Shown piece after piece: positions 888 through 57,487 of a stretch of DNA of 64,000 nt (the stretch's first letter is position 1; the number at the start of each line of letters is the position of its first letter). Below the pieces are notes generated by a model. It had not been told where the DNA came from. It made no database searches and saw nothing but the letters and a program-made list of their open reading frames with translations. Made by a program: the position numbers and the translations under genes. Source of the DNA: a bacterium (lineage in GTDB: Bacteria; Arandabacterota; Arandabacteria; Arandabacterales; Arandabacteraceae); the NCBI GenBank assembly GCA_025774405.1, contig JALGWB010000001.1, forward strand, positions 16,609 to 80,608. Reading direction: 5' to 3'.

Positions 888-891
888 TTGG

Positions 892-18782: not shown

Positions 18783-18793
18783 CCACGTTTCCT

Positions 18794-18988: not shown

Positions 18989-19000
18989 TGTCGCCTCCGT

Positions 19001-38703: not shown

Positions 38704-38729
38704 CCTTAGATACTTAGGGGTCCCCAACT

Positions 38730-39206
38730 ATGATTTTAGATGCAGGATCAGGCATGGCATCGAACCCAAGAGCCAACATACTCATGGACAAATATCTTCA
38801 AGGAGACAGTACCTCTCGTATAACGGGCACTCTTATGATTCGCAAAGGACAGACTATGATTTGTGGTGACCTTGAGGCCATGCCATTTCTGGATAAGTCC
38901 TTCGACATTGTTATTTGCTCTCAGACGCTCGAACATGTTGATAATCCTGAGAAAGCCTGTGCTGAGTTGGTGCGGGTAGGAAGGAGTGGTTTCATAACTG
39001 CGCCAAACGAGACAGTAGAAAGGCGTCGATATGAGCGTCGCGAGAAGCTCTATCACAAGTGGCTTATCAAGCAACGGGGCACTCACCTCGACTTCTATCT
39101 CAGAAGTCTCGTTCCAAGCCTCCCGATGATGGAGCATCCTAGCCAGGGCGTGGATATGGCTTGGAAAGGGAGCTTCACTTGGTCAGTGTTCAGAGAATCG
39201 CCATGA
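38730..39206 (+). CDS. class I SAM-dependent methyltransferase (Methyltransf_11-like)
   Basis: LEAMPFLDKSFDIVICSQTLEHVDNPEKACAEL post-motif II/III block. Confidence 0.6.
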   Translation: MILDAGSGMASNPRANILMDKYLQGDSTSRITGTLMIRKGQTMICGDLEAMPFLDKSFDIVICSQTLEHVDNPEKACAELVRVGRSGFITAPNETVERRRYERREKLYHKWLIKQRGTHLDFYLRSLVPSLPMMEHPSQGVDMAWKGSFTWSVFRESP

Positions 39207-40195: not shown

Positions 40196-40865
40196 ACAAT
40201 ACCGTAGGGACTTCGCCACGTACATGAGCCTTCCTGGAGCTGAGAGGTGTAGACTCCAAATGTATCCTCGTCTTGAGGATAAGACCGCATCAACTCCCCT
40301 GGATGCCTATTACTTTCGACAAGATACCTGGGCGTTCAAGCGGATAGTAGACCTCAAGCCTAGCAGCATAGTAGATGTAGGATCGACTGCGCTCCTCGTG
40401 GGAATTCTTGCCCAGATGTTTCCTACAACGAGTATCGATATAAGGCCCATTCCAGTATCTCTTCCTGGATTAACATGTAGGCAAGGCTCGATCACTAATC
40501 TCCCCTTCAAAGACGCCTCAGTTGAGCTCCTGAGCAGCCTATGTGTGATAGAGCATATAGGTCTAGGTCGATACGGCGACAAGCTCGATCCGCTCGGTAG
40601 CATCAAAGCCTGCAAGGAGATCTCGAGGGTGCTCAAGCCTGGTGGACATTTCATAATGAGCACTCAAGTGAGTCATACCCCTGCCCTCTGCTTCAATGCG
40701 CACCGAATCTTCACGCAGGCCCAAGTTCTGGATATGTTGCCAGCCTTCTCGGTAACGGATGAGGCGTTCTTCTTCCCTCGGCCTGGCAATGCAGAAGACA
40801 TAGAGGCACTCACGGGTTTCAGGTTCTGCTTCTGGTGCGTAGACTTGGTTAAGGAGTCAGCATGA
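40182..40865 (+). CDS. SAM-dependent methyltransferase (DUF268-like)
   Basis: VDVGSTALLVGILAQ (motif I-like) ... LKPGGHFIMST. Confidence 0.55.
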   Translation: MTAVEQYRRDFATYMSLPGAERCRLQMYPRLEDKTASTPLDAYYFRQDTWAFKRIVDLKPSSIVDVGSTALLVGILAQMFPTTSIDIRPIPVSLPGLTCRQGSITNLPFKDASVELLSSLCVIEHIGLGRYGDKLDPLGSIKACKEISRVLKPGGHFIMSTQVSHTPALCFNAHRIFTQAQVLDMLPAFSVTDEAFFFPRPGNAEDIEALTGFRFCFWCVDLVKESA

Positions 40866-41665
40866 CGCTCTCGGTTGTAACTCCTAGCTACATTAACAAC
40901 CAGCAACGAGCTGATTGGGCCAGAGACTCTCTGGCTTCCCTCAGGGAAACTATCGGCGACGGCTACTTACATGTTGTGGTGCTTGACAAATCCCTTGAAT
41001 GGAATATTATTGCTCAGGCAATCTATAACCAGCCTAATGTAATGCTCATGCAGCGTCCCAAGCCTCTTGGCAATACTTCAGCTTTGCTAAAGGCCGTGAA
41101 GGAATCTCGCAAGTTGGGAGCAGATCTCTGTTTTGTCCATATGGACGATAACATCTATGTCCCCGAATTCGGACCTCTTCTCAGATATGCCCAGGACGCT
41201 TTCAGCAACGATAGGGAGTTGCAAGAAGTGCTCTTTGTTGGCTACCCGATCCTTATAAAGAGGCATAGCAAACCACTTCTTGGCAATCGCACAGGCCTAA
41301 CTATCGAGGAGAATCAAGTCTCTTTCGATACCATACAGTTGCACCCTACTCGCTGTACGGATTATACTCTCTGGTGGTCTTATTTTCATGACCGAATGGT
41401 GGACGGGCGATTTTGGGCAGTTGTCATGTGGATGGCTCTCTACCGAGCTGAGTTCTTGGAGAGTGTCCTTACACTTGCCCCTACGGGCCGGACGCTTGGT
41501 CAGGTTGAATCTTACTACAGAAACAGAAGCAACTGGGAGAGACTATCCCATCGCTTTCCAGGAAAGCTCGGTTACATAAACATGCAGTTCGGCGGTTTGG
41601 AGATGCACCATCATAGTCAGGAATGGTGTGAGATGATCCGTTTTCCTAATACGCCTGTGAGGTGA
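40862..41665 (+). CDS. GT-A-like glycosyltransferase (DxD HMDDN)
   Basis: LSVVTPSYINNQQR...VHMDDNIYVP layout resembles GT-A enzymes. Confidence 0.45.
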   Translation: MTLSVVTPSYINNQQRADWARDSLASLRETIGDGYLHVVVLDKSLEWNIIAQAIYNQPNVMLMQRPKPLGNTSALLKAVKESRKLGADLCFVHMDDNIYVPEFGPLLRYAQDAFSNDRELQEVLFVGYPILIKRHSKPLLGNRTGLTIEENQVSFDTIQLHPTRCTDYTLWWSYFHDRMVDGRFWAVVMWMALYRAEFLESVLTLAPTGRTLGQVESYYRNRSNWERLSHRFPGKLGYINMQFGGLEMHHHSQEWCEMIRFPNTPVR

Positions 41666-41701
41666 GACATATAGGAGAAGACTTACCTGTGAGGTGAAGG
41701 A

Positions 41702-42340
41702 ATGACTTACAGAGAGAATCCAGAACTAGGTCAGGACATGGTTAAGTTTGCCTTTCATCGTTGGCAGCAAGGAGAATATCTCTTAGAGCCTCCTCAGCGT
41801 CAAATCTACGAGAATATTGCGGTCAGAGCGAAAGGCAAGACGGTCTGTGATATAGGCTCTGGAGCGGGACTGGGAACTACTATCCTAGCACAAAGGGCTC
41901 AGTCAGTTATTGGCATCGAGAAGGTTGCGTCTTCCGTCAGGTTCTCTAGGAAATGTCATCCCCTAACAAATGTGCAGTTTCTGAATGAGGATATAGGGAA
42001 GTGCTCTCTTTCTGACAACAGTTTCGATGTAGTGGTGGCGGTTGAGGTGATAGAGCATATCGCAAACTACCAGGCAGCACTGGATCAGATGGCTCGAATT
42101 CTGAAAGAGTCTGGAACCCTATACATCTCGTCTCCTAACAGGAATCAAGATATTAGAGGAGGAGCGTCAGGCGCAGGCCCGCCAAGGAACAAGTATCATG
42201 TTCGAGAGTGGACAGCCGAGGAGTTTCGGCATATTCTTCTCTCGCGCTTCAGTCAGGTTAGGCTTTCTGACTATACCCTTGACCCTTGCCTAGACTCCTG
42301 TACGCGAGTCTCGCCAGTTATCGCGATCTGTCGAATATGA
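41702..42340 (+). CDS. class I SAM-dependent methyltransferase
   Basis: Motif I VCDIGSGAGLGT, then FDVVVAVEVIEHIANYQAAL...LKESGTLYISSPN. Confidence 0.7.
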   Translation: MTYRENPELGQDMVKFAFHRWQQGEYLLEPPQRQIYENIAVRAKGKTVCDIGSGAGLGTTILAQRAQSVIGIEKVASSVRFSRKCHPLTNVQFLNEDIGKCSLSDNSFDVVVAVEVIEHIANYQAALDQMARILKESGTLYISSPNRNQDIRGGASGAGPPRNKYHVREWTAEEFRHILLSRFSQVRLSDYTLDPCLDSCTRVSPVIAICRI

Positions 42341-43005
42341 GAACTCTGTGGATCGTTATTCCAGCAAAAGATGAGGCTGCTACTATTGCAGACCTAGTTG
42401 CCGAAGCCGCCCACTACGGAACGGTGTTAGTAGTTACCAGTGGGCCTTCAGACGATACTGGCCCAAGAGCTGCCAGCGCGGGAGCCCAGGTAATCTACAA
42501 CGGCCAGAGCATTGCAGGAAAGATAGTCACTGGCTGGCAGAGAGCCCTCGACAACAATGCGACACGAGTCATAGTCATGGATGCAGGCGGATCGCATAGG
42601 CCATCAGATATCCCCCGTCTCCTGGCAGCAGAGGCTGACATCGTAATAGGCAGTCGGTTTGTGGCTGGAGGCCAATATCATGGCAGATCGTGGCGCAGGG
42701 TATGCAGTCAAGTCATGGCTCTGCTCTGCAACCTAGCCCAACCAGGTAAACAGGTCCATGACTGGTCTAGCGGCTTCAGGTGTTATTCGGTAGAAGCAAT
42801 TGGGCAGCTACTAGCCGTCCATTATAAATCTGATATGCACGCTTGGCAAATCGAGGTGCTAGGCTGGGCTAGGCGCTTGCACCTTTCAGTTGAGGAAGTC
42901 CCTATACAGTATACTGCTGGGCACTCGTCTCTCTCCTGGGATGGGGCTCTCAGGGCTCTCAATATATTGTTAGACATCTTGCTCCGCAGGTGGGTAGTCG
43001 GATGA
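42286..43005 (+). CDS. family-2 glycosyltransferase, DPM1/GtrB-like (polyprenyl-phosphate sugar transferase type)
   Basis: LWIVIPAKDEAATI...VVTSGPSDDTG...RVIVMDAGGSHRPSDIPRLL...DIVIGSRF. Confidence 0.7.
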   Translation: MPRLLYASLASYRDLSNMRTLWIVIPAKDEAATIADLVAEAAHYGTVLVVTSGPSDDTGPRAASAGAQVIYNGQSIAGKIVTGWQRALDNNATRVIVMDAGGSHRPSDIPRLLAAEADIVIGSRFVAGGQYHGRSWRRVCSQVMALLCNLAQPGKQVHDWSSGFRCYSVEAIGQLLAVHYKSDMHAWQIEVLGWARRLHLSVEEVPIQYTAGHSSLSWDGALRALNILLDILLRRWVVG

Positions 43006-44075
43006 TATTCTACCTTGATACATACATTACTGACGAGCCTCTCCATCCTGCGTTTGTTTGGCCAAACAGGGAGATCAGGAACTCCTGTCCCCAGTATAAG
43101 ATGCCACGGAGAATAGATATCACAAAGTACACGCTTGCGAGTTATAAGATGATTCCGTGGACACATGTTGTCATCGCATACGATGTTGCTGATAAGGATG
43201 ATGAAAGCACGTTCCTGGACTTTGTGCAAGAAGTTTTCCCAGACGCAGATGTTAGTCGGCCTCGCTCCTCTAACCAGAAGACGTACAGGGCAAGAGTGGA
43301 GCAAGTTTGCAGTTTTGAGGATGACTTCATCTTTTATGCACCTAACAACGATCATCCCCTCATAGCAAGCAATCTCAATCACCTGCCCAAGTTACTCAAA
43401 AAGGCTTCAAGGTTCTCACAAAACTACCCATTTGTCTCCGTTGTCTACTCGCACTTCAGTGAGTTCGTCAACGCGCCTGTCGTTGGGAGTCCTTTCTACA
43501 GACAGTTCTCTAGCGACTCACGCATAGTAGAAGACGACGAGATTGCTACGAGCTTTGTGAGATTCAATGGCGACAACTCTTCTATCCAGATCGTCAATAG
43601 GAATCTCCTGCAACACTGGTTTTGCTCACATGATCTCGGTGATGCCAGAATCATCAGAGCAGAAGATGTTCGCAGGTTTCTTCCAACTCCTAACCAGTTG
43701 ATGATAGTGCCCAAGAAGGAGCTCTGTGCGCACTTTGACGGCTACTCGCATACAACTGGTATCACTAAGATCAGTCCTGACCAGATTCCTCCTCTATTCA
43801 TTCCAACAGGGTTCTTCGACAGCTCGATTCGGATCGCCTACGGATATCCAGAATACCGAGATGGCTGGGTAAACATAAACCCTTCTGCGAGGGATTTCAG
43901 TTTCCGCGACCGAAAGACGGGCACAGATCTGAAAATTGGTCTTCAGGACATACCTCTTTTCTGGAAGAGCAGAATCGCAGAAATAGACATCAATGTGAAT
44001 GCCGACCTCGAGCGAATTAAGGAGGGCAGAGAGAAATACTTTGAGACAGTTCGTAACCCCTGGAGGAAAGCCTAG
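42990..44075 (+). CDS. hypothetical protein inside the glycosylation cluster
   Basis: 361-aa ORF, no motif recognised. Confidence 0.45.
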   Translation: MGSRMIFYLDTYITDEPLHPAFVWPNREIRNSCPQYKMPRRIDITKYTLASYKMIPWTHVVIAYDVADKDDESTFLDFVQEVFPDADVSRPRSSNQKTYRARVEQVCSFEDDFIFYAPNNDHPLIASNLNHLPKLLKKASRFSQNYPFVSVVYSHFSEFVNAPVVGSPFYRQFSSDSRIVEDDEIATSFVRFNGDNSSIQIVNRNLLQHWFCSHDLGDARIIRAEDVRRFLPTPNQLMIVPKKELCAHFDGYSHTTGITKISPDQIPPLFIPTGFFDSSIRIAYGYPEYRDGWVNINPSARDFSFRDRKTGTDLKIGLQDIPLFWKSRIAEIDINVNADLERIKEGREKYFETVRNPWRKA

Positions 44076-44650
44076 TGATCAAGTTGCATATAGGCTGTGG
44101 CCCCAGAGTGCTAAAGGGATGGATAAATATCGATCTCAAGTTCACTCCTTACCAGGCGTACCTGAAATACTACACTGACAAGTACTACCCAGAGTCCGCT
44201 AGGGGCGACAAGTCAGATTTTCTTGCACTAGATGTGTCTAGGCAGCCTTTGCCCTTTCCTGACAATTCGGTAGATGTCGTCTTCCATGAGGACTTCCTTG
44301 AGCACCTGAACCAGCGTAGCCAAGTTCTCTTCCTAGCTGATTCTCTCCGAGTCTTGAAGCCAGACTCCATTCATCGAATTGATACGCCTAACCTGTTAGC
44401 ATCGATGCGCGATCACTCTAATTTCTCCCTTGGCTTTCAGGGTGTCTATGTCCATGAGTGGGATAAGTCCAAGCATCTCAATGTATTGACCCCTAGCTCG
44501 CTTGAAGAGATGGCTCTTATGGTTGGATATTCAACAGTAGTCTTCACAGGTAGAAACCAAAGTGCGTCGCCTCTGATTCCGCCTGAGTATCGCCCTGATC
44601 CAAGAGATCGGCCCGAGAACGGAAACATCTTTGCAGATTTGGTTGCTTAG
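44075..44650 (+). CDS. SAM-dependent methyltransferase
   Basis: HIGCGPRVLKGWINID (motif I) ... LRVLKPDSIHRIDTPN. Confidence 0.55.
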   Translation: MIKLHIGCGPRVLKGWINIDLKFTPYQAYLKYYTDKYYPESARGDKSDFLALDVSRQPLPFPDNSVDVVFHEDFLEHLNQRSQVLFLADSLRVLKPDSIHRIDTPNLLASMRDHSNFSLGFQGVYVHEWDKSKHLNVLTPSSLEEMALMVGYSTVVFTGRNQSASPLIPPEYRPDPRDRPENGNIFADLVA

Positions 44651-45539
44651 GAGTAGCGCCTTGAGGATATTTGTTCTTCCTGTGTCGTCTCAGTTTCAAC
44701 CTCCTCCCATGAAGATTCTCTATCCTCCTCACAACAAGCGAGACTACGGCATTGAGCAAGACTTCGCTCAGCATCTCACAGAGCCTTCTAGTGACTGGAC
44801 GATCGCAGAGTCTTCTGACGTTGCTGATTGGCATTACCTTCCTATCTACTGGACACGTTACCATGTGACACATAACTATGCCAAGACTGGCCTAGAAGCA
44901 CTTCAGCGTGAAGTTGCCCGAAGAATCATTGACGACAAAAGGACCTTTACAATTTGCCAGTATGATGATGGGCCTTTGGTAGACCTTGGTAGAACTGTGC
45001 AGTTTCTAGGGTCTCGCAAAGGGGAAGAAGGCATCGACGTCCCTCTTCTTTCCTATCCTCATAAGCTCCCTGCAGTTGATCCCCCTAAACAGTGGTTAGC
45101 GTCTTTTGCAGGGAGACTCCGAACGCACGAGGTTCGCGCAGACATGCAGCGTGTTCTGGGGCCTCGCCAGGACATTGACATTCAGGACACACGCAAAACC
45201 AGTAGATTCTTTGTAGACTTGATCCTTCGGTCGTATGTTTCCCTCTGTCCCAGGGGATGGGGTGGCTCGTCTTTTAGGTTTTATGAATCTATGCAACTGG
45301 GAGTAGTGCCCCTTCTCATTGGCAGCATAGACACCCGCCCCTTCAAACGTTTCCTGAACTGGAGTATAATGAGTCTCTATGCTCGCACGGCCGAGGAAGC
45401 AAATGTGTCCCTCGACTCCCACACTCTGACAGAATTGCTAGAGATGGGGCGATGTGCCAAGAAAGCCTGGCATCAAGATCTATCGTTTGGGCACTGGCAC
45501 AAGTATGTGTTTCAGGAATTGGAGGCTCTATGGCATTAA
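44631..45539 (+). CDS. exostosin-like (GT47-type) glycosyltransferase
   Basis: SLCPRGWGGSSFRFYESMQLGVVPLLIG closely matches the exostosin C-terminal catalytic block. Confidence 0.6.
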   Translation: MQIWLLRSSALRIFVLPVSSQFQPPPMKILYPPHNKRDYGIEQDFAQHLTEPSSDWTIAESSDVADWHYLPIYWTRYHVTHNYAKTGLEALQREVARRIIDDKRTFTICQYDDGPLVDLGRTVQFLGSRKGEEGIDVPLLSYPHKLPAVDPPKQWLASFAGRLRTHEVRADMQRVLGPRQDIDIQDTRKTSRFFVDLILRSYVSLCPRGWGGSSFRFYESMQLGVVPLLIGSIDTRPFKRFLNWSIMSLYARTAEEANVSLDSHTLTELLEMGRCAKKAWHQDLSFGHWHKYVFQELEALWH

Positions 45540-46984
45540 AGCACCATCAGCACTCTCTACAGGCCGAGGCGGTATGGGGGAAAGCCTACGGCGTGTTTGA
45601 TCGAATTGTTCAGTTGAGAGGTTTCAGGACTGGCGTCGAGGTTGGCGTTGCTTTTGGAGGGCACATAGAAGCACTTCTCAACATCCCCACTATTGAGAAG
45701 GTCTATGGAGTTGATCCCTATCAGCAAACAGGAACTAGCAGCTCCTTGGGCCTCTCGCAGTCTGAGATGGATACCCTCTATCTCTTCGTTCTGAACAGAC
45801 TTGCCCCGTTTGGCGATCGTTACCAGCCTGTACGAAAAAGCTCGGTAGAGGCATCGTCTATCATCCCGCAGGAGATTGATTTCGTCTACATAGACGCTGA
45901 CCATTCCTACCAGGAAGTTATGGCGGATCTCTGTGCTTGGTTTCCCAAAGTACGCGAAGGCGGGATAATTGGCGGCCATGACTATTCTCATCCTGACTTG
46001 CCAGGAGTTAAGAAAGCCGTGGATAGATTCTTCAGTCGGTTTGCTCAGCGCGTTCACTCACTAGGCGAATATGTCTGGTGGATAGAGAAGAAGATGCCCA
46101 GCATCAGCTTCGTATTGCCTGCATACAACTGCGCTGAGTTCGTCGAGGAGTCTGTGAAGTCTATTCAGAAGGGGAACTTTGAAGATGGCGACGAGCTCAT
46201 CATTGTTGACGATGGCTCATCTGACAATACCCTGATGATTTTGCAGAGACTGGCCGCGTACTATCCCTCAATAAGGCTTCTCAAACACGACAGTAATAGG
46301 GGCGCATCAGCAGCCAGGAATACAGCGATAGCCAGTGCCAAGAACTCCCTACTCTTCAACCTAGACTCAGATAATATCCTAGTGCCAGGCAGCATCCCCA
46401 AACTCAAAACATATTTGATTAGCTCCAATGCTGATATAGCAGTGTTCGAGGAGACGCGTTTCTTTAGAAACGGAACTGGCCAGATAACACACAGCTGGAA
46501 GTATGGCCCAGGTCTGTTGACTCTATCCGACTGCTTGGCTGGCCAAATAACTCCTGGGGCTAGTGGGAACTATATGTTCACTAAGGAGTCCTGGGCCAAA
46601 GCTGAAGGTTACCCTGAGTTCGCAAAGACCTATGAAACCTGGGGATTCGCCTTCAGGCAGCTAGCCACAGGCTCCAAAATGATGGCAATGCCCGACTCTT
46701 TCTATCTCCATAGGTATGGCCATTCGTCACTCTGGGTGCGAGAAGGAGGAAATCGGAACGCTTCTCGGAAAACTCTAAAGATGATTCTGCCCTTTCTTGG
46801 CCTGCTTGACTACAAGGACGTTGAATACATAATGAGCCACAAGGAGACCTGGCTTACTAACTTATCTCAGCACCCAATACGAGTCAAGGGGAGCGCTCCT
46901 GGGAATTCGGGCAGCATCAAACTCCAGAGCCCTCCACTTGACTATATGGAGCTTTTGTGTCAGAATATAGACGAGGAGACATAA
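45530..46984 (+). CDS. bifunctional TylF/MycF-like O-methyltransferase (N-terminus) and GT2 glycosyltransferase (C-terminus)
   Basis: N-terminus GVEVGVAFGG...FVYIDADHSYQEVMADL...GGIIGGHDY (Methyltransf_24 pattern); C-terminus SISFVLPAYNCAEF...LIIVDDGSSDNT...NRGASAARN. Start set to the internal Met MALKHHQ. Confidence 0.65.
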   Translation: MALKHHQHSLQAEAVWGKAYGVFDRIVQLRGFRTGVEVGVAFGGHIEALLNIPTIEKVYGVDPYQQTGTSSSLGLSQSEMDTLYLFVLNRLAPFGDRYQPVRKSSVEASSIIPQEIDFVYIDADHSYQEVMADLCAWFPKVREGGIIGGHDYSHPDLPGVKKAVDRFFSRFAQRVHSLGEYVWWIEKKMPSISFVLPAYNCAEFVEESVKSIQKGNFEDGDELIIVDDGSSDNTLMILQRLAAYYPSIRLLKHDSNRGASAARNTAIASAKNSLLFNLDSDNILVPGSIPKLKTYLISSNADIAVFEETRFFRNGTGQITHSWKYGPGLLTLSDCLAGQITPGASGNYMFTKESWAKAEGYPEFAKTYETWGFAFRQLATGSKMMAMPDSFYLHRYGHSSLWVREGGNRNASRKTLKMILPFLGLLDYKDVEYIMSHKETWLTNLSQHPIRVKGSAPGNSGSIKLQSPPLDYMELLCQNIDEET

Positions 46985-47571
46985 TGATTGACTACAAGAC
47001 AACCGCTGGTTTCTCCCTGACACTTGAGGAGCGTGAGTTCCTCAAAGACTCTGCTGAGGGCTCTGGCTCCATTGTCAGTATCGAGTCTGGCCCCTGCGCT
47101 GCGCTATGGTGCTTCAGGGCAGGCGCGCCTGAGTCTTCCATCTACAGCGTGAAGGAGCAAGGATCGATCATAGATGGTGATCCAGGAGTAACTATCCTTA
47201 GTGGCTTTTCTGACTTCCCTGGAAACTCTGTAGACCTGCTCTTCATAGATGGCTCACATGCTTTCAAGGATGTTCTACTCGACTTAGTTACTTGGCAAGA
47301 TAGCATCCCGCTGAAAGGCTTAGTGGTCCTTCACGACTATGAGCACAACAATATGCCTGAAGTTAAGCTGGCTACTGAGTTCTGGCTCAAGAACGTCACC
47401 AGGAAAACCTGGCAGCCGATTGAGGCTCCTGGCTCTCTCTTTGCCCTCAGGCGTATTGCTCGTGGGAGGAAGCCAGCTGTTGTCCCCGTAGAGGCCCTCA
47501 AGGAACAGCACGCTGAGCAAGAGAGCGTATCAGAGAAGGCAACCGGCCAAGTGGACCCTAGACAGGACTGA
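46984..47571 (+). CDS. TylF/MycF-like (Methyltransf_24) SAM-dependent O-methyltransferase
   Basis: LLFIDGSHAFKDVLLDLVTWQDSIPLKGLVVLHDY; TAATG stop/start overlap with the upstream gene. Confidence 0.6.
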   Translation: MIDYKTTAGFSLTLEEREFLKDSAEGSGSIVSIESGPCAALWCFRAGAPESSIYSVKEQGSIIDGDPGVTILSGFSDFPGNSVDLLFIDGSHAFKDVLLDLVTWQDSIPLKGLVVLHDYEHNNMPEVKLATEFWLKNVTRKTWQPIEAPGSLFALRRIARGRKPAVVPVEALKEQHAEQESVSEKATGQVDPRQD

Positions 47572-47582: not shown

Positions 47583-47912
47583 ATGAGGTACTGCCCCATG
47601 TGCGACATCGCTTTGGGCTCACCTGAAGCCCACAAGACCGAATGGTTCTATCATTCAAGGGCAGTTACTATCGTTGAAGACCTTGATCCCAAGGGCTATG
47701 TCCTAAGGCTCTTGGGCGTACCTCGCAAACATTTCGACTGTGAGGCTACAGGGGAGCTTATAGCAGCGATCCGCCAACAGACCATTGAGATAGCCTTAGG
47801 TGTAGCGCGGGCAATATGTCTGGAGCGAGGGCTAGCAATTGCCCAGATCGATACTGAGCATCATTCATTCAGAGATCACTGGCATCTCCAGGTCTGTCTG
47901 AGTTTGAGGTGA
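47583..47912 (+). CDS. HIT-like small protein (N-terminal CPMC, C-terminal HWHLQ)
   Basis: 109 aa; partial histidine-triad pattern (H-x-H-x-Q) and N-terminal CxxC as in some HIT proteins; weak. Confidence 0.3.
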   Translation: MRYCPMCDIALGSPEAHKTEWFYHSRAVTIVEDLDPKGYVLRLLGVPRKHFDCEATGELIAAIRQQTIEIALGVARAICLERGLAIAQIDTEHHSFRDHWHLQVCLSLR

Positions 47913-47918: not shown

Positions 47919-50900
47919 ATGTCTGAGCTTCTGATTCGCAAGGTCGGCAACATCTGCTTTGTGCTGGACGAGAAGGGCAAAGATGTCTCAGGTGACTATG
48001 CAGACAGCCTTAACCAGTACAGAGATCTCGGGTTGTCCTCATTCTCCCTGTCAGCGCTGGGCTATGAGAATTCTCTCTATCCTACTGACTGCCTGGAACT
48101 ATCAGGGGAGAGCCTGGCTGAGCTCTCCCATCAGGAACGGGTAGACTTGTTCCTCACGGCTCTTCCCCAAGACCAGGATATCTCCTTCCGGCAATCGAAG
48201 CAAGTAGAGCTATTCAAACCCTTCACTCCGCTGAAGGCCCGCACTGGCTATGGTCTCTATGAGTTCAATAACAAACAAGACCTCTGGGAGATGTGGGCCA
48301 AGGAGCGCATAGAGGCCAAGCGACCGATTGCTGTTCAGGCCAAGTTTGACGGTATCCGGCTTATCGTATTCAGGAAGGGCGACAGAGTTCAGATGCTCAC
48401 CGAGGATAAGAAACGAGACCGTGCTTCTATTCTCCCTGAAGTCGTAGCAGAGATTAAATCTCTGCCAGGCGACTCCTGCATACTGGATGTGGAAGCTGTC
48501 ATTTGGCAGGAGAATCAGCCCATTCCTCGTCGTGAGATGATAAAGATGGTTGTGGGCAAAACACCTCTCAGGGGTGAGGATATCCACATTAATGTCCACG
48601 ATTGTCTGCTAGTAGATGGTAAGCCTCTTAACACTGAGCCCTACTCGGTGCGATTGGCAGCTCTTGACGAACTTCTCCCTAAGGATAAGAAGTTTCTCAG
48701 AAAGGCTCAAACTTGGGTAGCTAAGACTAAAAGCGAGTTCCTGTCTGCCCTCGACAAGGCATCTGCTTATCCTGGCTCAGAAGGAGCTATGGTCAAAACC
48801 TTGGATAGCGACTATCCTATTCGGGGTCGTACCCGAGAAGAGACTGCTGACTGGGGAAAGTTAAAGTTGGCGGTGGAGCTGCATTGCAAAGTCATAGGGC
48901 GTACTCGCAAGCCTAATCCCTGGCCTCCTGACGAACGCCCCAAACGCAATCTCCAGGGTGATGAGGCCCTTAAAGCCTTTCGTAAGTTGCAGAAAGGCTC
49001 CAAGACTTTCTACTATCGCTGTGCCCTTCGGGACGGTAAGAAGCTCATCCCTATCGACTCTGAGCACAAGCTGACTCCTGGAAACCTCTCCCTCAAGTGG
49101 GACGCCGAACACGAGGGCGGAGTCTGGAAAGGCACTGACGACCCTGAAATCTGGGAGATGGCTAAGGGTTTTGAGAACAGGCCCCGAGGCGACTGGGCTT
49201 ATGGCAATACCTACGCCGTTAAGTACGACCCTCCGCCGAAACTGGGCGATATCATCACAGTGGCTCCCATCCTGATGCGAGCCTGGAAGGACAACAGCAC
49301 TACTCACTACTCCTGGACTTTTCCTAGATGCAAAGAGTTTGATCCTACCCGTACACAGCCTGACACCGTCCAGGACGCAGAGCGCATCGTGGCAAAGTCT
49401 CCCAAGTCCATCCGCAAGCATGTTCGTCCTGGGCCTTTTGGGCATCCTGGAGGCAAAACCGTCTTGCTGAAGCATATCCTGCCTAGGATACCTGCCCATG
49501 AGACTTATTGTGAGCCTTATGTCGGATCAGGGGCTGTATTCTTCGCCAAGCCCAAAGCCCACAAGTCAGTTCTAGGGGATACAGACCCTGAGATAATAGC
49601 AGCCCTCCGCTTTGTTCGGGACGCCTCAGCAGAGGATATCGAATGGCTGCGCAAGCAGAACTGGCAGCCGTCCAAGGGTCGCTGGCAGTTCCTCAAGGAT
49701 CAAAAGCCAGTCCGCAAACGAGAGCGCTTCTATCGCTTTAGATACCTGGATATCAACTCCTGGGCTCACTCGCCTGCTAAAGGCTTCGCCCGTAGCAACC
49801 AGCCCGCATCCATGAAAGCCGAAATGGATAAGATCAGGGCAGGCCAGCAGAAACTACGTGGCAATGTCTCTATCGTCCAGCAAGACGCCTTCAAGACTAT
49901 GCGGGAGAATGACTCACTGTCTACTTTCCACTACATTGATCCGCCCTATTGGGGCAGTGGTGACCTTCAGCCCTATGGTGGTAAGGCCCCTGACCCCGAA
50001 GCCCTTGTTAAGTTCCTCAAAGGACTACGCGGCAAGTGGCTACTATCCATGGCAGACAAACCTAGAACGCGCAAGGCCTTCAAGGATTTCAATATCAAGT
50101 CAGTCTCTCGTCAAATGACTTATACAGTTTACTCGCGTAAGACTAAGGCTGGTCAGCCAACACGCACTCGCCGTGAGCTCCTAATTGCTAACTACGACTT
50201 CGCCGATCTCCACGAAGCCGTAGTTCCTCCTGGCGAAGGCGAGAAACCCACCCACAAGAAGCAGCGTGCTGAGGCTGAGCGCAAGTTCGGCGATCCCTAC
50301 ATGGTTCACCAACCTCCCGACAAAACCTTTCCCTTTGTCTATATGCACCATGAGCGGGGTATCTGGACTCAGGCTGAGCTTGTGGGCCTACGCGCCGCAC
50401 TCAAGAACGCCAGACGATATCCTGATCTTATTCCTGACATCTGGAAACGTTACAAGCCTGTCGTCCTAACGACTAGCCTAGAGTCTCTCAGGCGAGACGC
50501 AGAGGCAACCTCCGAGAAGCGGGGTGATGTCACTGCTGCTGTCCACAAGCACCTTGACGAGAAACCTCCCAAAGTTCTTCCTTCCAACAACAAGATACTC
50601 AATGTGGGCAATGTCCATGGTGACTGGCGAATGCGCTCTCCAGAGGGCGAGTTCCTCATTGGGTGGACCCTCTCTACCCCGTCGGTTGTACTCCAGTTTG
50701 CCGACGGCAAAACCGTCTATCCTATCAGGGACAGATTCCTTGAGAACAAGGAGGGCGACAAGATAGTAGCCTACCGCAAGTGTCCTAATCCACTCTGTGA
50801 CGAGGAGCGCTATTTACGCCTAGTTGAATCCAATCCTCATGAGAGCGTGTCCCAGATGTTCGCCAGCGAGGAGGGCGAAATAATTCTCGGTTCCCAACGT

Positions 50901-51950
50901 CCGTTAGCTATGCGATTGGCAGAATCAGGTGCAATCCAACTCTTGGCAGGCTTGCCAGAGAATCTTACTCAGGAATCGGTTCAGCCGATGGTATGGCTCA
51001 CTATCGTCAATCCTAAGCGTCTCGTCTATCAGGTCTCAGCTGGAGGCGTAGGTGCAACGGCGAAGACTGGCGCTAGGTTCATCTTTCGGGATGCTGGGAA
51101 AGTGGCATATGGTTGCCAAAAGTCGGATTTCCATGAGGGGTTTTTCTGGTTCAACCGCCACAAAAATCTCTCAGGCCGCTGGGGAGTCCAGGAGCTAGCA
51201 GGTAGGCCTGAGTACACAAAGCTCGGAACTGAGGGTAACTGGTGGATGGTCAATCATGTCGTCAAAGACCCTCGGCCCTACATCCTCCGCTACTCCCGTG
51301 ATGCTAAGGAGCGGCAGGCTAAAAAGGAACATCTCAAACACATCATCTGGAACGCCGATGTCCTCAAAGTTCTCAAGGCTGACCCTCATGGCCGCAAATG
51401 GCTAGGGCTAACCTCCCAGAAGAAACTAGACGAGAAGTGGGCTGAGTTCTCTGCTGGCAATGGAGAGTTTCGCCTTCGCAAATCGCTCAGCTTCAGCTCG
51501 AAGCTCTTTCACTCACCGGCCGCCGAAAAGCAACTGTTTGTCTATGGGGCAATTCTCATCCCAGGCAAAACTGACGCTCAGGGCCACCATGTTACAGCAA
51601 TAGAGGTCGCTAAGGCCATTCGCACAATGGGGGACATTGGTTTCGATATTGAGCATTCTGAGAAAGTCTCTCCCAACGATCTTAGGCTTACCCAAATCTT
51701 CCAAGCCCCAGTTGGGTTCAAGATTGGCAGCCAGCATTTCAAGAAAGGCACTGCTATTGCCGAGATCGCTGTTCTGTCGCCCGCGATTCGCAAGCGTGTT
51801 CTCTCAGGTGAGATCAGGGGCTTCTCGATCTCCGGGAAAGGGGTTATGGACAACTCGGCAGGCCTGTACGACATTAAGATTCAGAAGATCTCCCTTGTTG
51901 GGAGCCCTGCTATCAAAGAGGATTTCATAATAAAGGTTGAGGACGTGTAA
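47919..51950 (+). CDS. 1343-aa multidomain fusion: ATP-dependent DNA-ligase-like nucleotidyltransferase + Dam-like N6-adenine DNA methyltransferase + unknown middle region + C-terminal prohead-protease-like (XkdF/DUF2213-type) domain
   Basis: Ligase motifs I AKFDGIR (K142), III ILDVEAVIW, IIIa/IV INVHDCLLVDGKPL..PYSVRLAAL, V EGAMVK, VI DWGKLK. Dam motifs FGHPGGKTVLLKHILPRIP..YCEPYVGSGAVFF and HYIDPPYWG. C-terminus ILIPGKTDAQGHHV..GFDIEHSEK..GFSISGKG. Confidence 0.7.
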   Translation: MSELLIRKVGNICFVLDEKGKDVSGDYADSLNQYRDLGLSSFSLSALGYENSLYPTDCLELSGESLAELSHQERVDLFLTALPQDQDISFRQSKQVELFKPFTPLKARTGYGLYEFNNKQDLWEMWAKERIEAKRPIAVQAKFDGIRLIVFRKGDRVQMLTEDKKRDRASILPEVVAEIKSLPGDSCILDVEAVIWQENQPIPRREMIKMVVGKTPLRGEDIHINVHDCLLVDGKPLNTEPYSVRLAALDELLPKDKKFLRKAQTWVAKTKSEFLSALDKASAYPGSEGAMVKTLDSDYPIRGRTREETADWGKLKLAVELHCKVIGRTRKPNPWPPDERPKRNLQGDEALKAFRKLQKGSKTFYYRCALRDGKKLIPIDSEHKLTPGNLSLKWDAEHEGGVWKGTDDPEIWEMAKGFENRPRGDWAYGNTYAVKYDPPPKLGDIITVAPILMRAWKDNSTTHYSWTFPRCKEFDPTRTQPDTVQDAERIVAKSPKSIRKHVRPGPFGHPGGKTVLLKHILPRIPAHETYCEPYVGSGAVFFAKPKAHKSVLGDTDPEIIAALRFVRDASAEDIEWLRKQNWQPSKGRWQFLKDQKPVRKRERFYRFRYLDINSWAHSPAKGFARSNQPASMKAEMDKIRAGQQKLRGNVSIVQQDAFKTMRENDSLSTFHYIDPPYWGSGDLQPYGGKAPDPEALVKFLKGLRGKWLLSMADKPRTRKAFKDFNIKSVSRQMTYTVYSRKTKAGQPTRTRRELLIANYDFADLHEAVVPPGEGEKPTHKKQRAEAERKFGDPYMVHQPPDKTFPFVYMHHERGIWTQAELVGLRAALKNARRYPDLIPDIWKRYKPVVLTTSLESLRRDAEATSEKRGDVTAAVHKHLDEKPPKVLPSNNKILNVGNVHGDWRMRSPEGEFLIGWTLSTPSVVLQFADGKTVYPIRDRFLENKEGDKIVAYRKCPNPLCDEERYLRLVESNPHESVSQMFASEEGEIILGSQRPLAMRLAESGAIQLLAGLPENLTQESVQPMVWLTIVNPKRLVYQVSAGGVGATAKTGARFIFRDAGKVAYGCQKSDFHEGFFWFNRHKNLSGRWGVQELAGRPEYTKLGTEGNWWMVNHVVKDPRPYILRYSRDAKERQAKKEHLKHIIWNADVLKVLKADPHGRKWLGLTSQKKLDEKWAEFSAGNGEFRLRKSLSFSSKLFHSPAAEKQLFVYGAILIPGKTDAQGHHVTAIEVAKAIRTMGDIGFDIEHSEKVSPNDLRLTQIFQAPVGFKIGSQHFKKGTAIAEIAVLSPAIRKRVLSGEIRGFSISGKGVMDNSAGLYDIKIQKISLVGSPAIKEDFIIKVEDV

Positions 51951-52005: not shown

Positions 52006-52224
52006 ATGGCCTTAGATTCCTTCCTAGGACTTGACAAGCGCAGCATAACCGGTTATAATGAAGATAACAAAGCTCATCCCATAGTGCGGGCCTGGATTAG
52101 CCAACTAATTCAGTCTAAAGAGCTAGCCCTGGTCCTAGACAGGTATGAGTTTCGGCGTATCGATGTGACGCTCTCAGCTAGTGGAGGTAAGGCGGTACTC
52201 AAACCGACGATCTCGTTTCGCTAA
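52006..52224 (+). CDS. hypothetical small protein
   Basis: 72-aa ORF between the protease-like domain and the capsid gene. Confidence 0.3.
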   Translation: MALDSFLGLDKRSITGYNEDNKAHPIVRAWISQLIQSKELALVLDRYEFRRIDVTLSASGGKAVLKPTISFR

Positions 52225-52313: not shown

Positions 52314-54992
52314 ATGGGTTTCACATTAAAGGTGAAAGGTTGGATTGAGGACTTCGTGAAGGCGGCTGAGGCGTCCAAAGAGGAGATTCCCAAGGCGGCC
52401 CAGGGTAGCTTCACTCGCCTGAAACTACTCTCGGCCCAGAAGCCTGTCAAGGATGTGGAGTCTAGCCGCAACTCCGAGGGTCTGGAGAAGCTTCAGGCAT
52501 TCCTGAAGAGTGTGAAGGGCAAAGCCAAGTTGGAGACTGTTGCCAAGAAAGCCATTGACAACCTGACCGAATACTTTGGGAAGGACTATGGGGCAAAAGG
52601 GGAGGTCGCAAAAGCTTCCACTTATGTCTGCCCAAAGTGCGGCTACAAGGGCAAGCCTGACAAAGACGGCAACTGTCCCAAGTGTGGCACTAAGATGAAG
52701 GTGGATTACGGGAAAGCCTACGGCGACTACGGCAAGACCAAGTATGAGGATTATGGCAAGACCGAAGTTGCCAAATCTGAGCCCCATCCCCACGGCAAGC
52801 ATGTCGTCTATTGCCCTAAATGTGGCTATGAGGAGACAGTCGAGGCTGGCGTCAAGGCTAAGGACAAGAAGTGTCCCAAGTGCGGAACTCGGATGCGGGC
52901 TAGGGAAATAGGTGAGCGGCGCGAGGCTGTCCACTTCAGGACCCTAACTGGCCGACTTCTTGAAGCTGTTGAAGGCACAGAGGGTAGCCAGTGGGAAGTC
53001 ACTCTCATCGAGGCAGGCGTCTCTGAGAATCGCACCAAGTACAGTCTCCCTGTTCTTGAAAAAGCGCTTCCCCTCTTCGATGGTGCTAAGTGCTTCGCTG
53101 ACCATTCAACTGCCTCTGAGCGTCGCGAGCGCCCTGGACGCTCTATCAGAGACATCGTAGGCTGGTTTGAAAGCCCGAAAGTTCTCGGCGACGGAGTCAA
53201 AGGAATTGGGGCTGTCTTCAACATCCTAGAATCAGAACGATGGTTTCGAGATAAAGTCGTAGAGGCCTGGGAGCGAGGCAAACGAGACCTCATTGGCTTC
53301 TCGATCAGCGCCATCGGCAGACAGAAACTGATTCGCGAGGAGGACAAACTCCTCAAGGAAGTCGTTTCGATTGACAAAGTACAATCTGTAGATGCTGTCA
53401 CTGAGCCTGCAGCTGGTGGCAAATTCGTGAAAATGCTAGAAGGGAAGGAGGCAGAAGAAGTGAGCCAACTAGATATTCTGAACACCATCACACTGGAGAA
53501 TCTGAGAGAGGTGAGGCCAGACTTGTTCCCTGAGCCTGCTTCTGAGCCAGAGCCTGATTTGGAGCCTACGCCTGAGCCAGAGACTGAACCATCTCCTGAT
53601 CTTTCTCACCTCACTGAGGCGGTCAAAGAGATCGAGAGCCTAAAGGCTACCCTGGCTGAAATGCAGGATACGTCTCGGAAGACGGATCTCAAGGCGCAGC
53701 TTGACTCGGCGCTTCAGTCCAGCGGTCTTCCCAAGCCTGTCCAGGATAAACTTGGGCGACGCTTCTCTTCTCTCGAATTCACCTCGGAGACTCTCACTGA
53801 GGCGATTCGCGAGGAGAAGGAAGTCTTAGCCCAAATTCTGCCACCAGAGCGTCGTTACTTCCCATCAATCAAGATGGGCGAGAGCGAGCGGGACAAGATT
53901 GACAAGGCTATGGATGGTCTCCTGGAGGGCGAAGATATCGACGGGATTCCTCGCTTCAGGAATCTGCGTGAAGCCTACTCGATAGTCACTGGTACACCGA
54001 TTCTGGATGTCAGAGCTCAGCATATCCTGAATGCGTCGTCAGCCTTTGACTCGTCAGTTGGTTTCTTGCGAGAGGAGATATCGACAAGCACTTGGACGAA
54101 CGTCTTCGGAACCAGCATGACCAGGAGACTGCTTAAGGAATACCGCAAACCTGGCTATGATGACTGGAAGAAGATTTGCTCCAGCGTCGAGACTCTCGAC
54201 AACATGAAGTCCCAGGAGCGAGTCCGCATAGGTGGCTATGTTGCCCTCAGCTCGGTTTCCGAGGGAAGCACCTACACAGAGCAGTCGTATGATCCTCCAA
54301 ATGAGATGCAGAACTACACCCCGACCAAAAAGGGTAACTTGGAGAGTATCACACTGAAAGCTATCGCCAACGACGACCTTGGTGCTCTACGGCGAATTCC
54401 CAAGGCTATGGCCTTTGCAGCCAAGGTGGGTGTCTACAAGGCAGTTTTCGACGTTCTGACCACGAACGCTGCAATGAACTATGATTCAGTGGCTCTGTTC
54501 AACGCGGCCAGTCACGGGAACTATGGGACAACTGCTCTTAGCTATGAAGAGCTCACAAGTGCCAAGAATGCTATGCTGGAGCAGATGGAGCCAGTAGGGT
54601 CTGGTGGAACTGAGCTCACCTATCTGGACGTGGAGCCCAAGTACTTGCTGGTTCCACTAGAGCTCCGAGGCACAGCCTGGGACCTCATCAATTCGCCAGT
54701 TAGGGCACTTGCCAGTTCCTTCAACGCAACTCAGCCCAACATGCACTATAAGACGCTTGAGCTGATTGTAGTGAGGCACTGGACTGATTCTAACAACTGG
54801 TACTTGATCGCAGACCCTTCATTGATTGCAACCATCGAGGTTGGTTTCTATGGTTCTCAGGAGCCCGAAATCTTTACCGAGTTGGCCAATGCTGGGTCGA
54901 ATTTCACTGCTGATAAGCTCCGCTACAAGATTCGTCATATCTATGGGGTAGCAGCTCTTGAGCATCGTGGAATGTACGCCGAGATCGTGTGA
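52314..54992 (+). CDS. scaffold-domain / major capsid protein fusion (892 aa) with two zinc ribbons and a Pro/Glu-rich linker
   Basis: Strong RBS AAGGGAGG; N-terminal about 400 aa is Lys/Glu-rich coiled-coil-like with CPKCGYKGKPDKDGNCPKCG and CPKCGYEET..CPKCG; linker PEPASEPEPDLEPTPEPETEPSP; C-terminal about 450 aa has the composition and position of an HK97-fold capsid protein. Confidence 0.6.
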   Translation: MGFTLKVKGWIEDFVKAAEASKEEIPKAAQGSFTRLKLLSAQKPVKDVESSRNSEGLEKLQAFLKSVKGKAKLETVAKKAIDNLTEYFGKDYGAKGEVAKASTYVCPKCGYKGKPDKDGNCPKCGTKMKVDYGKAYGDYGKTKYEDYGKTEVAKSEPHPHGKHVVYCPKCGYEETVEAGVKAKDKKCPKCGTRMRAREIGERREAVHFRTLTGRLLEAVEGTEGSQWEVTLIEAGVSENRTKYSLPVLEKALPLFDGAKCFADHSTASERRERPGRSIRDIVGWFESPKVLGDGVKGIGAVFNILESERWFRDKVVEAWERGKRDLIGFSISAIGRQKLIREEDKLLKEVVSIDKVQSVDAVTEPAAGGKFVKMLEGKEAEEVSQLDILNTITLENLREVRPDLFPEPASEPEPDLEPTPEPETEPSPDLSHLTEAVKEIESLKATLAEMQDTSRKTDLKAQLDSALQSSGLPKPVQDKLGRRFSSLEFTSETLTEAIREEKEVLAQILPPERRYFPSIKMGESERDKIDKAMDGLLEGEDIDGIPRFRNLREAYSIVTGTPILDVRAQHILNASSAFDSSVGFLREEISTSTWTNVFGTSMTRRLLKEYRKPGYDDWKKICSSVETLDNMKSQERVRIGGYVALSSVSEGSTYTEQSYDPPNEMQNYTPTKKGNLESITLKAIANDDLGALRRIPKAMAFAAKVGVYKAVFDVLTTNAAMNYDSVALFNAASHGNYGTTALSYEELTSAKNAMLEQMEPVGSGGTELTYLDVEPKYLLVPLELRGTAWDLINSPVRALASSFNATQPNMHYKTLELIVVRHWTDSNNWYLIADPSLIATIEVGFYGSQEPEIFTELANAGSNFTADKLRYKIRHIYGVAALEHRGMYAEIV

Positions 54993-56323: not shown

Positions 56324-57487
56324 ATGGCCCGCTATGGGAGAGTTCTTCAGTCCAGACGTCAGCAACCTTTAAGGGTGATAGCTCCTTGCTATGAACTAGC
56401 AGCTAGTGGCTATTATCGGGTTCTGCTACCGCTCAAGGTCTTGCTCGACAGGGGGGCTATCGAGGCAGTTTGGAAGGGGATGTTACCCTGCAAGCCAGGG
56501 GAGAAGCCTGAGCGCGGCTCTCGACTTGCTAATTTGATGGCTCAACTCCTCAATTGGGCTAACGTCTACTTCCTAGAGAGAGAGGAACGAGAGAACCTTA
56601 TTCCCATACTTGAGAAAGCCAAACGACTCGGCAAGGCTATCGTGATGGACATAGATGACCATGTAGTTGCCTTTCCTGATATTCCTCAAAGGCAGGTATC
56701 GGATTTTTGGAAGGAGCGAGTGCCCTATTTCCTGAAGATCCTCCAGCAGGTTGATTTGTTGATTACCACTACCGACAGACTAGCAAGGAGTTATAAGGAG
56801 TACCTGGGCGATGGTGCCGAGACAGTTAGTATTCCAAACTTCATCGATACGAGGCATCCTCGCTGGCAAGTTCAGCCTAGCGAAAAGACTGACGGGACAA
56901 TCACTATTGGCTGGATGGGCGGCCCGACTCACATAGATGATCTGGAACTCCTCCGAGAGCCGCTCTCTATTATTCTGAACCGATACCCCAAGGCTGTCTT
57001 CAAGTGTGTAGGGCTGATTCCAGAGTGGTTGGACAGTTTGCCTTCCGGCCAGGTCGTCAGGAGTGAGGGCTATTCTGGCCTTGCTGACTATCCAAAGCGC
57101 TTCGCAGATTTCGATATAGGACTTATCCCACTCACTGACAATGAGTTCAATCGGAAGGGTAAATCAGCGTTAAAGTATCTCGAATATTCGATGTTCGGAA
57201 TTGCCTCAGTTGTCAGCAAAGTGCCCGCTTATTGGGGAGCGGTTAGCAGGAAGCGAGGCTTTCTAACGCCCAATACGACCGAAGATTGGATCAAGTCCAT
57301 AGAAACACTTATCACCAGGGAAGCCCTTCGCAAATCCCTGGGCAATGCGGCCAAAGACTATGTTCTCAAGCAGCGTTCTATCGATGGCAACGCCTATCGT
57401 TGGGCTGCTGCCTTTGAGCAAGCTCGTCGAATCAGACGGAGCCGGAATCAAATCCTAGTGCCTGCACTAGAAGGAGTAGCAATATGA
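56324..57487 (+). CDS. GT1-family (GT-B, Glycos_transf_1) glycosyltransferase
   Basis: ITIGWMGGPTHIDD... and the C-terminal block KGKSALKYLEYSMFGIASVVSKVP typical of retaining GT4-type enzymes. Confidence 0.6.
   Translation: MARYGRVLQSRRQQPLRVIAPCYELAASGYYRVLLPLKVLLDRGAIEAVWKGMLPCKPGEKPERGSRLANLMAQLLNWANVYFLEREERENLIPILEKAKRLGKAIVMDIDDHVVAFPDIPQRQVSDFWKERVPYFLKILQQVDLLITTTDRLARSYKEYLGDGAETVSIPNFIDTRHPRWQVQPSEKTDGTITIGWMGGPTHIDDLELLREPLSIILNRYPKAVFKCVGLIPEWLDSLPSGQVVRSEGYSGLADYPKRFADFDIGLIPLTDNEFNRKGKSALKYLEYSMFGIASVVSKVPAYWGAVSRKRGFLTPNTTEDWIKSIETLITREALRKSLGNAAKDYVLKQRSIDGNAYRWAAAFEQARRIRRSRNQILVPALEGVAI

Follow-up and report, generated by a model that had tools for sequence, protein, structure and literature searches.

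The window analysed here is a stretch of 64,000 nucleotides from a bacterial assembly of the Arandabacteraceae (GCA_025774405.1, contig JALGWB010000001.1, positions 16,609 to 80,608 of the forward strand), which contains the head module of a phage. Between the portal and capsid genes of this module, a giant open reading frame (ORF) encodes a protein of 1343 residues, in which an ATP-dependent DNA ligase, a DNA methyltransferase of the D12 class, a fold of the LigD-type 3'-phosphoesterase (PE), and a prohead protease domain of the XkdF type follow one another in this order (Table 1). A preliminary description made from the sequence alone had noticed a single uninterrupted frame of this length, and such a frame was indeed found (47919-51950, no stops).

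The first enzyme of the protein is an ATP-dependent DNA ligase, as had been proposed. Its nucleotidyltransferase domain matched the Pfam family with 78.7 bits (curated cut-off 26.2), and a sequence search of the Protein Data Bank (PDB) returned archaeal DNA ligases (3rr5, 3gde, and 2cfm, with E values from 6e-9 to 1e-7). Ligase motifs I, III, IIIa, IV, and V are present and conserved in relatives, and the characteristic stretches are KFDGIR (residues 142-147, motif I, with K142), LDVEAV (189-194), NVHDCLLVDG (225-234), EGAMVK (288-293), and WGKLK (312-316). The motifs quoted in the preliminary description could be located in this way, the sixth being only motif-VI-like (TFPRCKE, residues 467-473, in the C-terminal region of the ligase). 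This C-terminal block is conserved in all relatives and probably adopts an oligonucleotide/oligosaccharide-binding (OB) fold; no match to Pfam DNA_ligase_A_C (PF04679) was found in the giant protein. Just before the ligase, a block reading FTPLKARTGY...EF..DLW..WA is also conserved in the family, as judged from the sequences.

The second enzyme matched the Pfam methyltransferase family with 65.3 bits (cut-off 22), and was also matched by phrog_56 (E 1e-37) and by PDB entry 7m6b (E 6e-16 across residues 508-766). Its motifs comprise FGHPGGK (507-513), the S-adenosylmethionine (SAM, or AdoMet) motif EPYVGSGAVFF (532-542), and DPPYWG (674-679) with the catalytic DPPY at 674-677; an FxGxG-type motif is present, and the AdoMet motif precedes DPPY, which is the alpha order. 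The domain had been called Dam: its class and its alpha layout hold, and the name should be D12-class. Various recognition sites are known among D12 enzymes. GATC is under-represented in the window, with 193 sites against 335+-18 expected from dinucleotide-preserving shuffles, which may reflect restriction avoidance and speaks neither for nor against a GATC specificity of this methyltransferase.

Behind the methyltransferase, the preliminary description had left a region of about 400 residues as unknown, which was here recognized as a divergent LigD-type PE fold with two inserts. A structure was predicted for residues 762-1343 from an alignment with ten homologue fragments, with a mean predicted local distance difference test (pLDDT) score of 70, values above 85 in the PE-like core, and values of 50-80 in the XkdF part. 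Foldseek matched this model to the PE structure 3p43 with a probability of 1.00 and a target template modelling (TM) score of 0.69, and the eight-strand beta-barrel of the PE fold could be seen in residues 787-1123 of the predicted structure. One insert, at about residues 818-888, is helical and follows strand 1; the other, at about residues 955-1018, contains CPNPLC, was modelled with low confidence, and is specific to the window clade. Neither the Pfam family LigD_N nor solved PE domains matched the protein, the family profile, or insert-spliced profiles, and an hhalign comparison with real PE sequences was weak (P 0.015) but collinear, in agreement with the fold match.

Six residues of the PE of PaeLigD (H42, H48, D50, R52, H84, and Y88) have been reported to be required for activity, and the substrates of LigD PE are 3'-ribonucleotides and 3'-phosphates (PMC3300020). 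According to the weak profile alignment, the first four correspond to H811, H900, D902, and R904 of the giant protein, all invariant in the family, and H811, H900, and D902 are the counterparts of the Mn2+ ligands. In the same alignment, Gln1022 and Trp1026 fall where PaeLigD has H84 and Y88, and both are likewise invariant among family members. Judging from the model and this alignment, the domain is a divergent PE-fold module with an apparently intact metal site and an altered second shell, that is, a putative enzyme. Because the formerly unknown region has a LigD-type PE fold, the giant protein is therefore predicted to unite ligase, end-healing, and methylase functions. With this domain, a divergent branch is defined within the LigD phosphoesterase superfamily, one that goes undetected with current profile libraries. 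A linker of variable length, with inserts in relatives, connects it to the protease domain.

The C-terminal domain, occupying the last 12% of the protein, matched the Pfam XkdF family with 32.6 bits (cut-off 24), as expected from the earlier reading of this domain as XkdF-type. Candidate catalytic residues are H1246 (in DIEH) and S1303 (in GFSIS). The serine is invariant, and every relative with an XkdF domain has a histidine to match H1246, although shifted by one alignment column; both residues are proposed as catalytic by analogy. An ISLVGSPA strand lies near the C-terminus of the domain in the window clade. Among the PHROG families, the domain matched the N-terminal protease part (positions 41-155) of the head maturation protease phrog_3017, and the C-terminal part of the profile phrog_1530, annotated as a DNA methyltransferase, matched the XkdF region, which means that methylase-XkdF fusions are already present, unremarked, in phage protein families. 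No solved structure could be found by sequence with the XkdF family profile, and a Foldseek match to 4jg2 was too weak for use. A nested stand-alone protease translated from an internal start was also considered and rejected, as in-frame Shine-Dalgarno-like starts occur only at residues 295, 516, and 1110, with none before the XkdF domain.

Table 1. Features of the head module and domains of its two large proteins (nucleotide positions in the window; residues within the respective protein)
Feature	Residues	Position	Strand	Basis or content
Portal protein, start of the head module of the giant gene		33843-35303	+	phrog_10963, E 1e-34
Glycosyltransferase/SAM-methyltransferase cassette between portal and giant gene		36753-47571	+	Pfam matches
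Giant head-module polyprotein ORF, 1343 aa		47919-51950	+	ATG start, no internal stops
Giant: N-terminal region	1-133	47919-48317	+	no Pfam or PHROG match
Giant: ATP-dependent DNA ligase nucleotidyltransferase domain	134-316	48318-48866	+	Pfam PF01068 (DNA_ligase_A_M), E 6e-22
Giant: ligase C-terminal region, presumed OB domain and insert	317-495	48867-49403	+	phrog_114 'ATP-dependent DNA ligase' spans aa 127-491
Giant: D12-class (Dam-like) N6-adenine DNA methyltransferase	507-766	49437-50216	+	Pfam PF02086 (MethyltransfD12) aa 510-734, E 1e-17
Giant: LigD-type PE fold	787-1123	50277-51287	+	Foldseek to 3p43
Giant: helical linker, PE to protease domain	1124-1187	51288-51479	+	model secondary structure
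Giant: XkdF/prohead-protease-fold domain	1188-1343	51480-51947	+	Pfam Peptidase_S78_2 aa 1200-1308
72-aa ORF between giant and capsid genes		52006-52224	+	no family match (Pfam, PHROG)
892-aa capsid polyprotein		52314-54992	+	zinc ribbons, protease fold, scaffold-like helices, capsid protein
Capsid polyprotein: two zinc ribbons	98-205			
Capsid polyprotein: second prohead-protease fold	~224-376			motifs FADH, GFSIS, SVDAVTEPAAGG
Capsid polyprotein: scaffold-like helices	~385-577			
Capsid polyprotein: major capsid protein	586-888			

The giant fusion is genuine and not an assembly artefact, because uninterrupted orthologues occur in three other samples. The exact protein (P0001) is on record in three contigs, including a contig from JGI that is identical to the window across 18.6 kb and is not independent. 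The three orthologues (P0002, P0003, and P0004) share 66-72% identity with it in alignable regions, and each is a single ORF with the same three Pfam domains rather than a set of separate genes. P0003 has 1342 residues and 68% identity at a query coverage of 100%; P0002 and P0004 have about 1510 residues, with 71-72% identity in the best local alignment, and carry a tandem-repeat insert of about 165 residues between methyltransferase and PE. In the loci read, those of P0003 and P0004, the neighbours match the gene order of the window, the giant gene being followed by a small ORF, a capsid polyprotein of about 900 residues, proteins of 232 and 162 residues, a glycosyltransferase, the tail tube, and the tape measure. 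A joining of separate genes by an assembly or frame error could be argued from one distant relative, L015, which has the modules as separate adjacent genes; however, given the full-length orthologue, the hundreds of long fused family members, and the clean alignment of the domain junctions between the giant protein and its homologues, this explanation is effectively refuted.

Further analysis indicated that the fusion is no one-off and belongs to a very large metagenomic family. When a profile of the PE and XkdF regions was searched against 1.84 billion cluster representatives, the numbers of matching proteins were 8,692 (E<=1e-3), 4,676 (E<=1e-10), and 302 (E<=1e-30). Architectures were counted in the best 150 cluster representatives, where XkdF lies within the best-matched stretch in 101 cases and ends no more than 30 residues from the C-terminus in 100 of these; among the 101, 80 proteins have at least 700 residues and 57 at least 1000. 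The PE core was found in 88 of the 150. What stands in front of XkdF is variable in content and shuffled in order: methyltransferase, ligase, PE, and XkdF follow one another in P0005, and NUDIX, ligase, PE, and XkdF in P0011 and P0012; P0016 has the order metallo-beta-lactamase, methyltransferase, ligase.

Five long XkdF-terminated members, chosen as very long or as having their best match in XkdF alone, were sampled, and a DNA ligase was present in all of them. It is accompanied by five C5-methylase stretches in P0034 (2643 residues), by C5 and D12 methylases in P0124, by a D12 methylase in P0121, and by an N-terminal 2H phosphoesterase in P0135, whose ligase contains an intein (Hint and LAGLIDADG); P0101 has no further Pfam domain. 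A weak match to RNA_ligase was seen in P0007 and a match to mRNA_cap_enzyme below threshold in P0006. A Pol-beta-type nucleotidyltransferase motif (GS...DIDLLVR) could be read in the N-termini of distant relatives, but no claim is made for it since Pfam gave no support. In IMG/VR, 13 viral contigs with relatives were found, including a form of 1776 residues with two DPPY motifs and PE-XkdF forms of 556 residues. The conserved core of the family appears to be a head-module DNA ligase plus PE, usually terminated by XkdF, with methyltransferases as common and variable accessories.

Searches outside the metagenomic data gave little. No relatives were found in a scan of bacteria and archaea with one genome per species, and when 50,697 phage records were searched by tblastn with the entire protein as query, all matches were partial, the listed ones all to the methyltransferase and covering at most 23% of the query. 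No cultured phage among these records carries the fusion, and the XkdF part matched only short stand-alone proteins there. Judged by its capsid gene, the closest cultured phage is Microcystis phage Mae-JY22, whose annotation shows no similarly large ORF upstream of that gene. A cyanobacterial host might be guessed from this capsid similarity.

In every locus read (the window and six related loci), the giant gene lies between the portal and capsid genes, which is also the place of the stand-alone XkdF genes of cultured phages. It had been described as immediately upstream of the capsid gene, but the conserved small ORF of Table 1 intervenes, an ORF of 66 or 69 residues taking its place in relatives. 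In locus L008, the order is portal, giant (NUDIX-ligase-PE-XkdF), a 255-residue protein, and an ordinary capsid protein of 311 residues, and no other full protease-domain match was found among the three neighbours scanned. In locus L009, terminase, portal, a MuF-like protein of 1211 residues, and three small ORFs are followed by the giant, a 333-residue protein, and a 400-residue virion structural protein that is presumed to be the capsid protein. The 333-residue protein matched only the C-terminal part of phrog_3017 (positions 256-395), the N-terminal protease part being matched by the giant's XkdF domain; together they resemble a canonical protease-scaffold gene in which the cargo has become fused to the protease half.

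The window phage itself has two protease-fold domains in its head module, the XkdF domain of the giant protein and a second one within the 892-residue capsid polyprotein. Each of them separately matched T4 gp21 by fold. By sequence, a direct kinship of the two could not be demonstrated (BLASTP E 0.9; hhalign P 0.004-0.011, probability below 4%), the hhalign comparison being collinear through the His, GFSI, and SLV..PA motifs. The preliminary description had argued that the XkdF domain sits exactly in the slot of the maturation protease. This is borne out in distant relatives, with their order of portal, protease, scaffold, and capsid, and weakened in the window phage, because its capsid polyprotein has a protease fold of its own. 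Since the domain calls hold and the canonical protease slot is seen in distant relatives, the idea put forward there, that the enzymes are tethered as cargo, is reasonable.

We give about even odds (roughly 0.5) to the reading that the giant ORF encodes a protease-anchored cargo protein, by which end-healing, sealing, and methylating enzymes would be delivered together with the genome. It builds on what the domains are, on active sites that seem intact for the most part, on the place of XkdF at the C-terminus throughout the family, and on the setting in the head module. Prohead proteases are built into the interior of the procapsid, and because of this the roughly 1190 N-terminal residues would be carried inside along with XkdF, which would take the fused ligase, D12 methyltransferase, and LigD-like PE into the procapsid. 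During head maturation, the enzymes would be cut from their anchor, with XkdF or the protease domain of the capsid polyprotein making the cut, and would remain in the head alongside the DNA. Upon infection, they would be ejected into the host, where they could draw on host ATP, SAM, and Mn2+. The PE might clean 3' ends and the ligase seal nicks or join the ends of the incoming genome, in circularisation or in the repair of nuclease damage, and the methyltransferase might mark the incoming genome against restriction. The protease of HK97 is reportedly targeted to the capsid by a C-terminal tail, a finding ascribed to Duda, Oh and Hendrix in 2013.

Several points weigh against this proposal. Packaging is argued from the position of the domain only, and with about 130 kDa attached to each protease copy, the cargo is bulky and would need unfolding to pass a siphovirus tail. 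The XkdF part was modelled with only moderate confidence (pLDDT 50-80), and with a second protease fold in the capsid gene, XkdF is not demonstrably the assembly protease of the window phage. In the PE, Q and W stand in for H84 and Y88, two of the six residues on which LigD PE activity depends. The head-module ligase-PE proteins P0006 and P0008 have no XkdF, the gene of P0006 still lying between the portal and a protease-capsid fusion in the locus read, and the PE match stops before XkdF in 44 of the 150 representatives; because of such members, the XkdF anchor is not indispensable. In the distant relative L015, from IMG/VR, methyltransferase, ligase, and PE are three adjacent separate genes.

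Some of these observations would suit a late cytoplasmic polyprotein, whose enzymes would be freed by XkdF or by the capsid-fused protease and act on replicated DNA before packaging, methylating progeny and sealing nicks at which packaging would otherwise stall, the fusion only ensuring co-expression with the head genes. The giant gene belongs to a late head operon with very short intergenic gaps, the cytoplasm supplies the required ATP and SAM, the window ORFs that were scanned revealed no further ligase, and both the split version and versions lacking XkdF exist. However, the extreme C-terminal XkdF in 100 of the 101 top members would then have no explanation, and neither would the choice of a procapsid-internal protease as the partner. 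Prohead proteases such as T4 gp21 and HK97 gp4 act within assembled procapsids, and the replication module already provides the phage with another DNA methyltransferase (15826-17226). A cytoplasmic role is considered unlikely. The same architectural evidence that suggests delivered cargo would also be compatible with processing inside the head, an alternative already raised in the preliminary description, in which the tethered enzymes would act on DNA while it is pumped in, with ATP and SAM entering through capsid pores, and would afterwards be degraded or persist as inert internal proteins. This would explain a tether to a capsid-internal domain without the ejection of large proteins, but we know of no precedent for enzyme processing in the head during packaging, access to densely packed DNA would be limited, and the NUDIX and 2H phosphoesterase domains of relatives seem better suited to repair or to action on the host than to helping with packaging. 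We rate it as quite improbable.

A further explanation keeps the delivery and changes the substrate: the enzymes might form an RNA-repair or counter-defence kit, which would mend RNAs after their cleavage by anticodon nucleases of the host or break down signalling nucleotides. The 3'-ribonucleotides and 3'-phosphates acted on by LigD PE (PMC3300020), the 2H phosphoesterase and NUDIX domains in relatives, and the weak RNA_ligase match in P0007 would fit such a kit. On the other hand, the best ligase matches are DNA ligases, and the most frequent accessories are DNA methyltransferases, which point to a DNA substrate, so that there seems to be only a small chance of an RNA-directed role.

Returning to protease-anchored delivery of DNA-directed enzymes, the nearest described systems differ in anchor or in cargo. 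In the polyvalent proteins of phages and conjugative elements described by Iyer, Burroughs, Anand, de Souza, and Aravind (2017; PMC5512222), effector domains are carried by MuF and portal fusions. The giant protein resembles them in combining several unrelated nucleic-acid-modifying enzymes in one polypeptide among the virion genes of a terminase-portal phage, in its predicted packaging and delivery with the DNA, and in accessory domains that vary strongly between orthologues. Its anchor, however, is a C-terminal prohead-protease domain rather than MuF or portal, and its family centres on an ATP-dependent DNA ligase combined with a LigD-type PE; in the text of PMC5512222, XkdF and the term S78 do not occur, and ligases appear only as RNA ligases. 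As a precedent, annotated protease-MuF fusion proteins are found in mycobacteriophages. Phage P1 targets DarB (250 kDa, about 40 copies per virion) to its capsid, and the protein is believed to reach the cell as a countermeasure to restriction; T4 IPIII, with its capsid-targeting sequence, is another case of loading (PMC9024508). The idea of loading into the head during morphogenesis and of protecting DNA from restriction on entry would be shared with the P1 Dar and T4 internal proteins. Their packaging is demonstrated and uses short N-terminal targeting signals, whereas that of the giant protein is proposed here and would use a whole C-terminal protease domain; to our knowledge, ligase or PE activity has not been described for any of them.

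Like bacterial LigD, the ligase of non-homologous end joining (NHEJ), in which ligase, 3'-phosphoesterase, and polymerase are combined, the giant protein joins an ATP-dependent DNA ligase to a PE fold, and in the weak profile alignment the triad of Mn ligands and an equivalent of Arg52 appear conserved. Unlike LigD, it has no polymerase domain of the archaeo-eukaryotic primase (AEP) type, its PE is divergent beyond the reach of Pfam and PDB sequence searches, with two large inserts and an apparent exchange of H84/Y88 for Q/W, and it is encoded in a phage head module in fusion with a protease; moreover, no Ku turned up among the window ORFs scanned. The mycobacteriophages Corndog and Omega are said to use a phage Ku together with host LigD for genome circularisation, a result credited to Pitcher et al. 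in 2006; dependence on NHEJ-type end joining when infection begins would be a common feature of these phages and the window phage. They encode Ku and borrow the host ligase, whereas the window phage would bring its own ligase and PE. With the XkdF-type proteases (the fold of HK97 gp4, T4 gp21, and herpesvirus assemblin), the C-terminal domain shares Pfam family, fold, the conserved His and Ser, and the position between portal and capsid. The described proteases of this type are stand-alone or protease-scaffold proteins of about 200-400 residues, whereas here XkdF ends an enzyme array of 1343 residues and a second protease fold lies in the capsid gene.

No paper describing a ligase or PE fused to a prohead protease was found, in line with the earlier remark that no described case of a protease-tethered ligase-Dam cargo was known to its author. 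The new elements would be the anchor, a protease domain, and the cargo, a DNA ligase with a cryptic LigD-type PE. More tentatively than for the single protein, it may be proposed that fusion with the maturation protease is the means by which an undescribed, large class of tailed phages packs a self-contained kit for DNA end joining and repair into the capsid. Injected together with the genome, the kit would allow the latter to be circularised, or repaired, and methylated as it enters, before host defences act and with no need for the ligase of the host. The kit would consist of the ATP-dependent ligase and LigD-like PE, with DNA methyltransferases, NUDIX, and 2H as optional parts.

Proteins delivered by the virion decide the first minutes of an infection, and those known are few (P1 Dar, T4 internal proteins and Alt, N4 RNA polymerase, and MuF-fused toxins), each with its own loading trick. 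If the proposal is true, the prohead protease would be a general cargo anchor and a new principle of capsid targeting, and a delivered ligase would be a new counter-defence strategy. Among environmental phages, a ligase with end-healing would then rank as a very common cargo (clusters at 50% identity number in the thousands), implying widespread selection from host defences that nick DNA or damage its ends, or from genome circularisation. Such an anchor would also serve as a natural scaffold with which foreign enzymes could be brought into capsids.

Several minor features of the surrounding genes were also recorded. The cassette between portal and giant gene, about 11 kb long, consists of co-directional GT2, GT1-like, and GT47 glycosyltransferases and SAM-methyltransferases, and a further glycosyltransferase (56324-57487) lies between head-completion genes and the tail tube. 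Comparable sugar-modification cassettes occupy the same position in loci L002, L003, and L008, which suggests virion glycosylation; Corndog and Omega are also said to have virion glycosylation genes in the structural module. Directly 3' of the portal gene, in the usual position of a MuF-like minor head protein, lies a 492-residue ORF (35303-36781) with no Pfam or PHROG match. A 109-residue ORF (47583-47912), which ends 6 nt before the giant gene, looked HIT-like by eye (CPMC..., ...DHWHLQV); with no Pfam, PHROG, or PDB sequence support, this reading was dropped, and an aprataxin-like function along with it. No gene was called at its position in L002 and L003.

The large terminase is split into two ORFs, of which 30857-31717 corresponds to positions 266-473 of phrog_38 (the ATPase part) and 32253-33185 to positions 468-705 (the nuclease part). 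Between them lies an unannotated ORF of 162 residues (31780-32268), for which no Pfam match was found, and the split gave no Rfam intron match; Rfam and tRNA scans of the window found nothing. On the minus strand, a replication/recombination module (3956-20083) contains the second DNA methyltransferase, of the N6_N4 type (15826-17226), a RuvB-like ATPase (17841-18947), an XPD/DinG-like helicase (9256-10863), a PD-(D/E)XK nuclease (6350-7099), and an ERCC4/XPF-type nuclease with helix-hairpin-helix (HhH) motifs (3956-4672).

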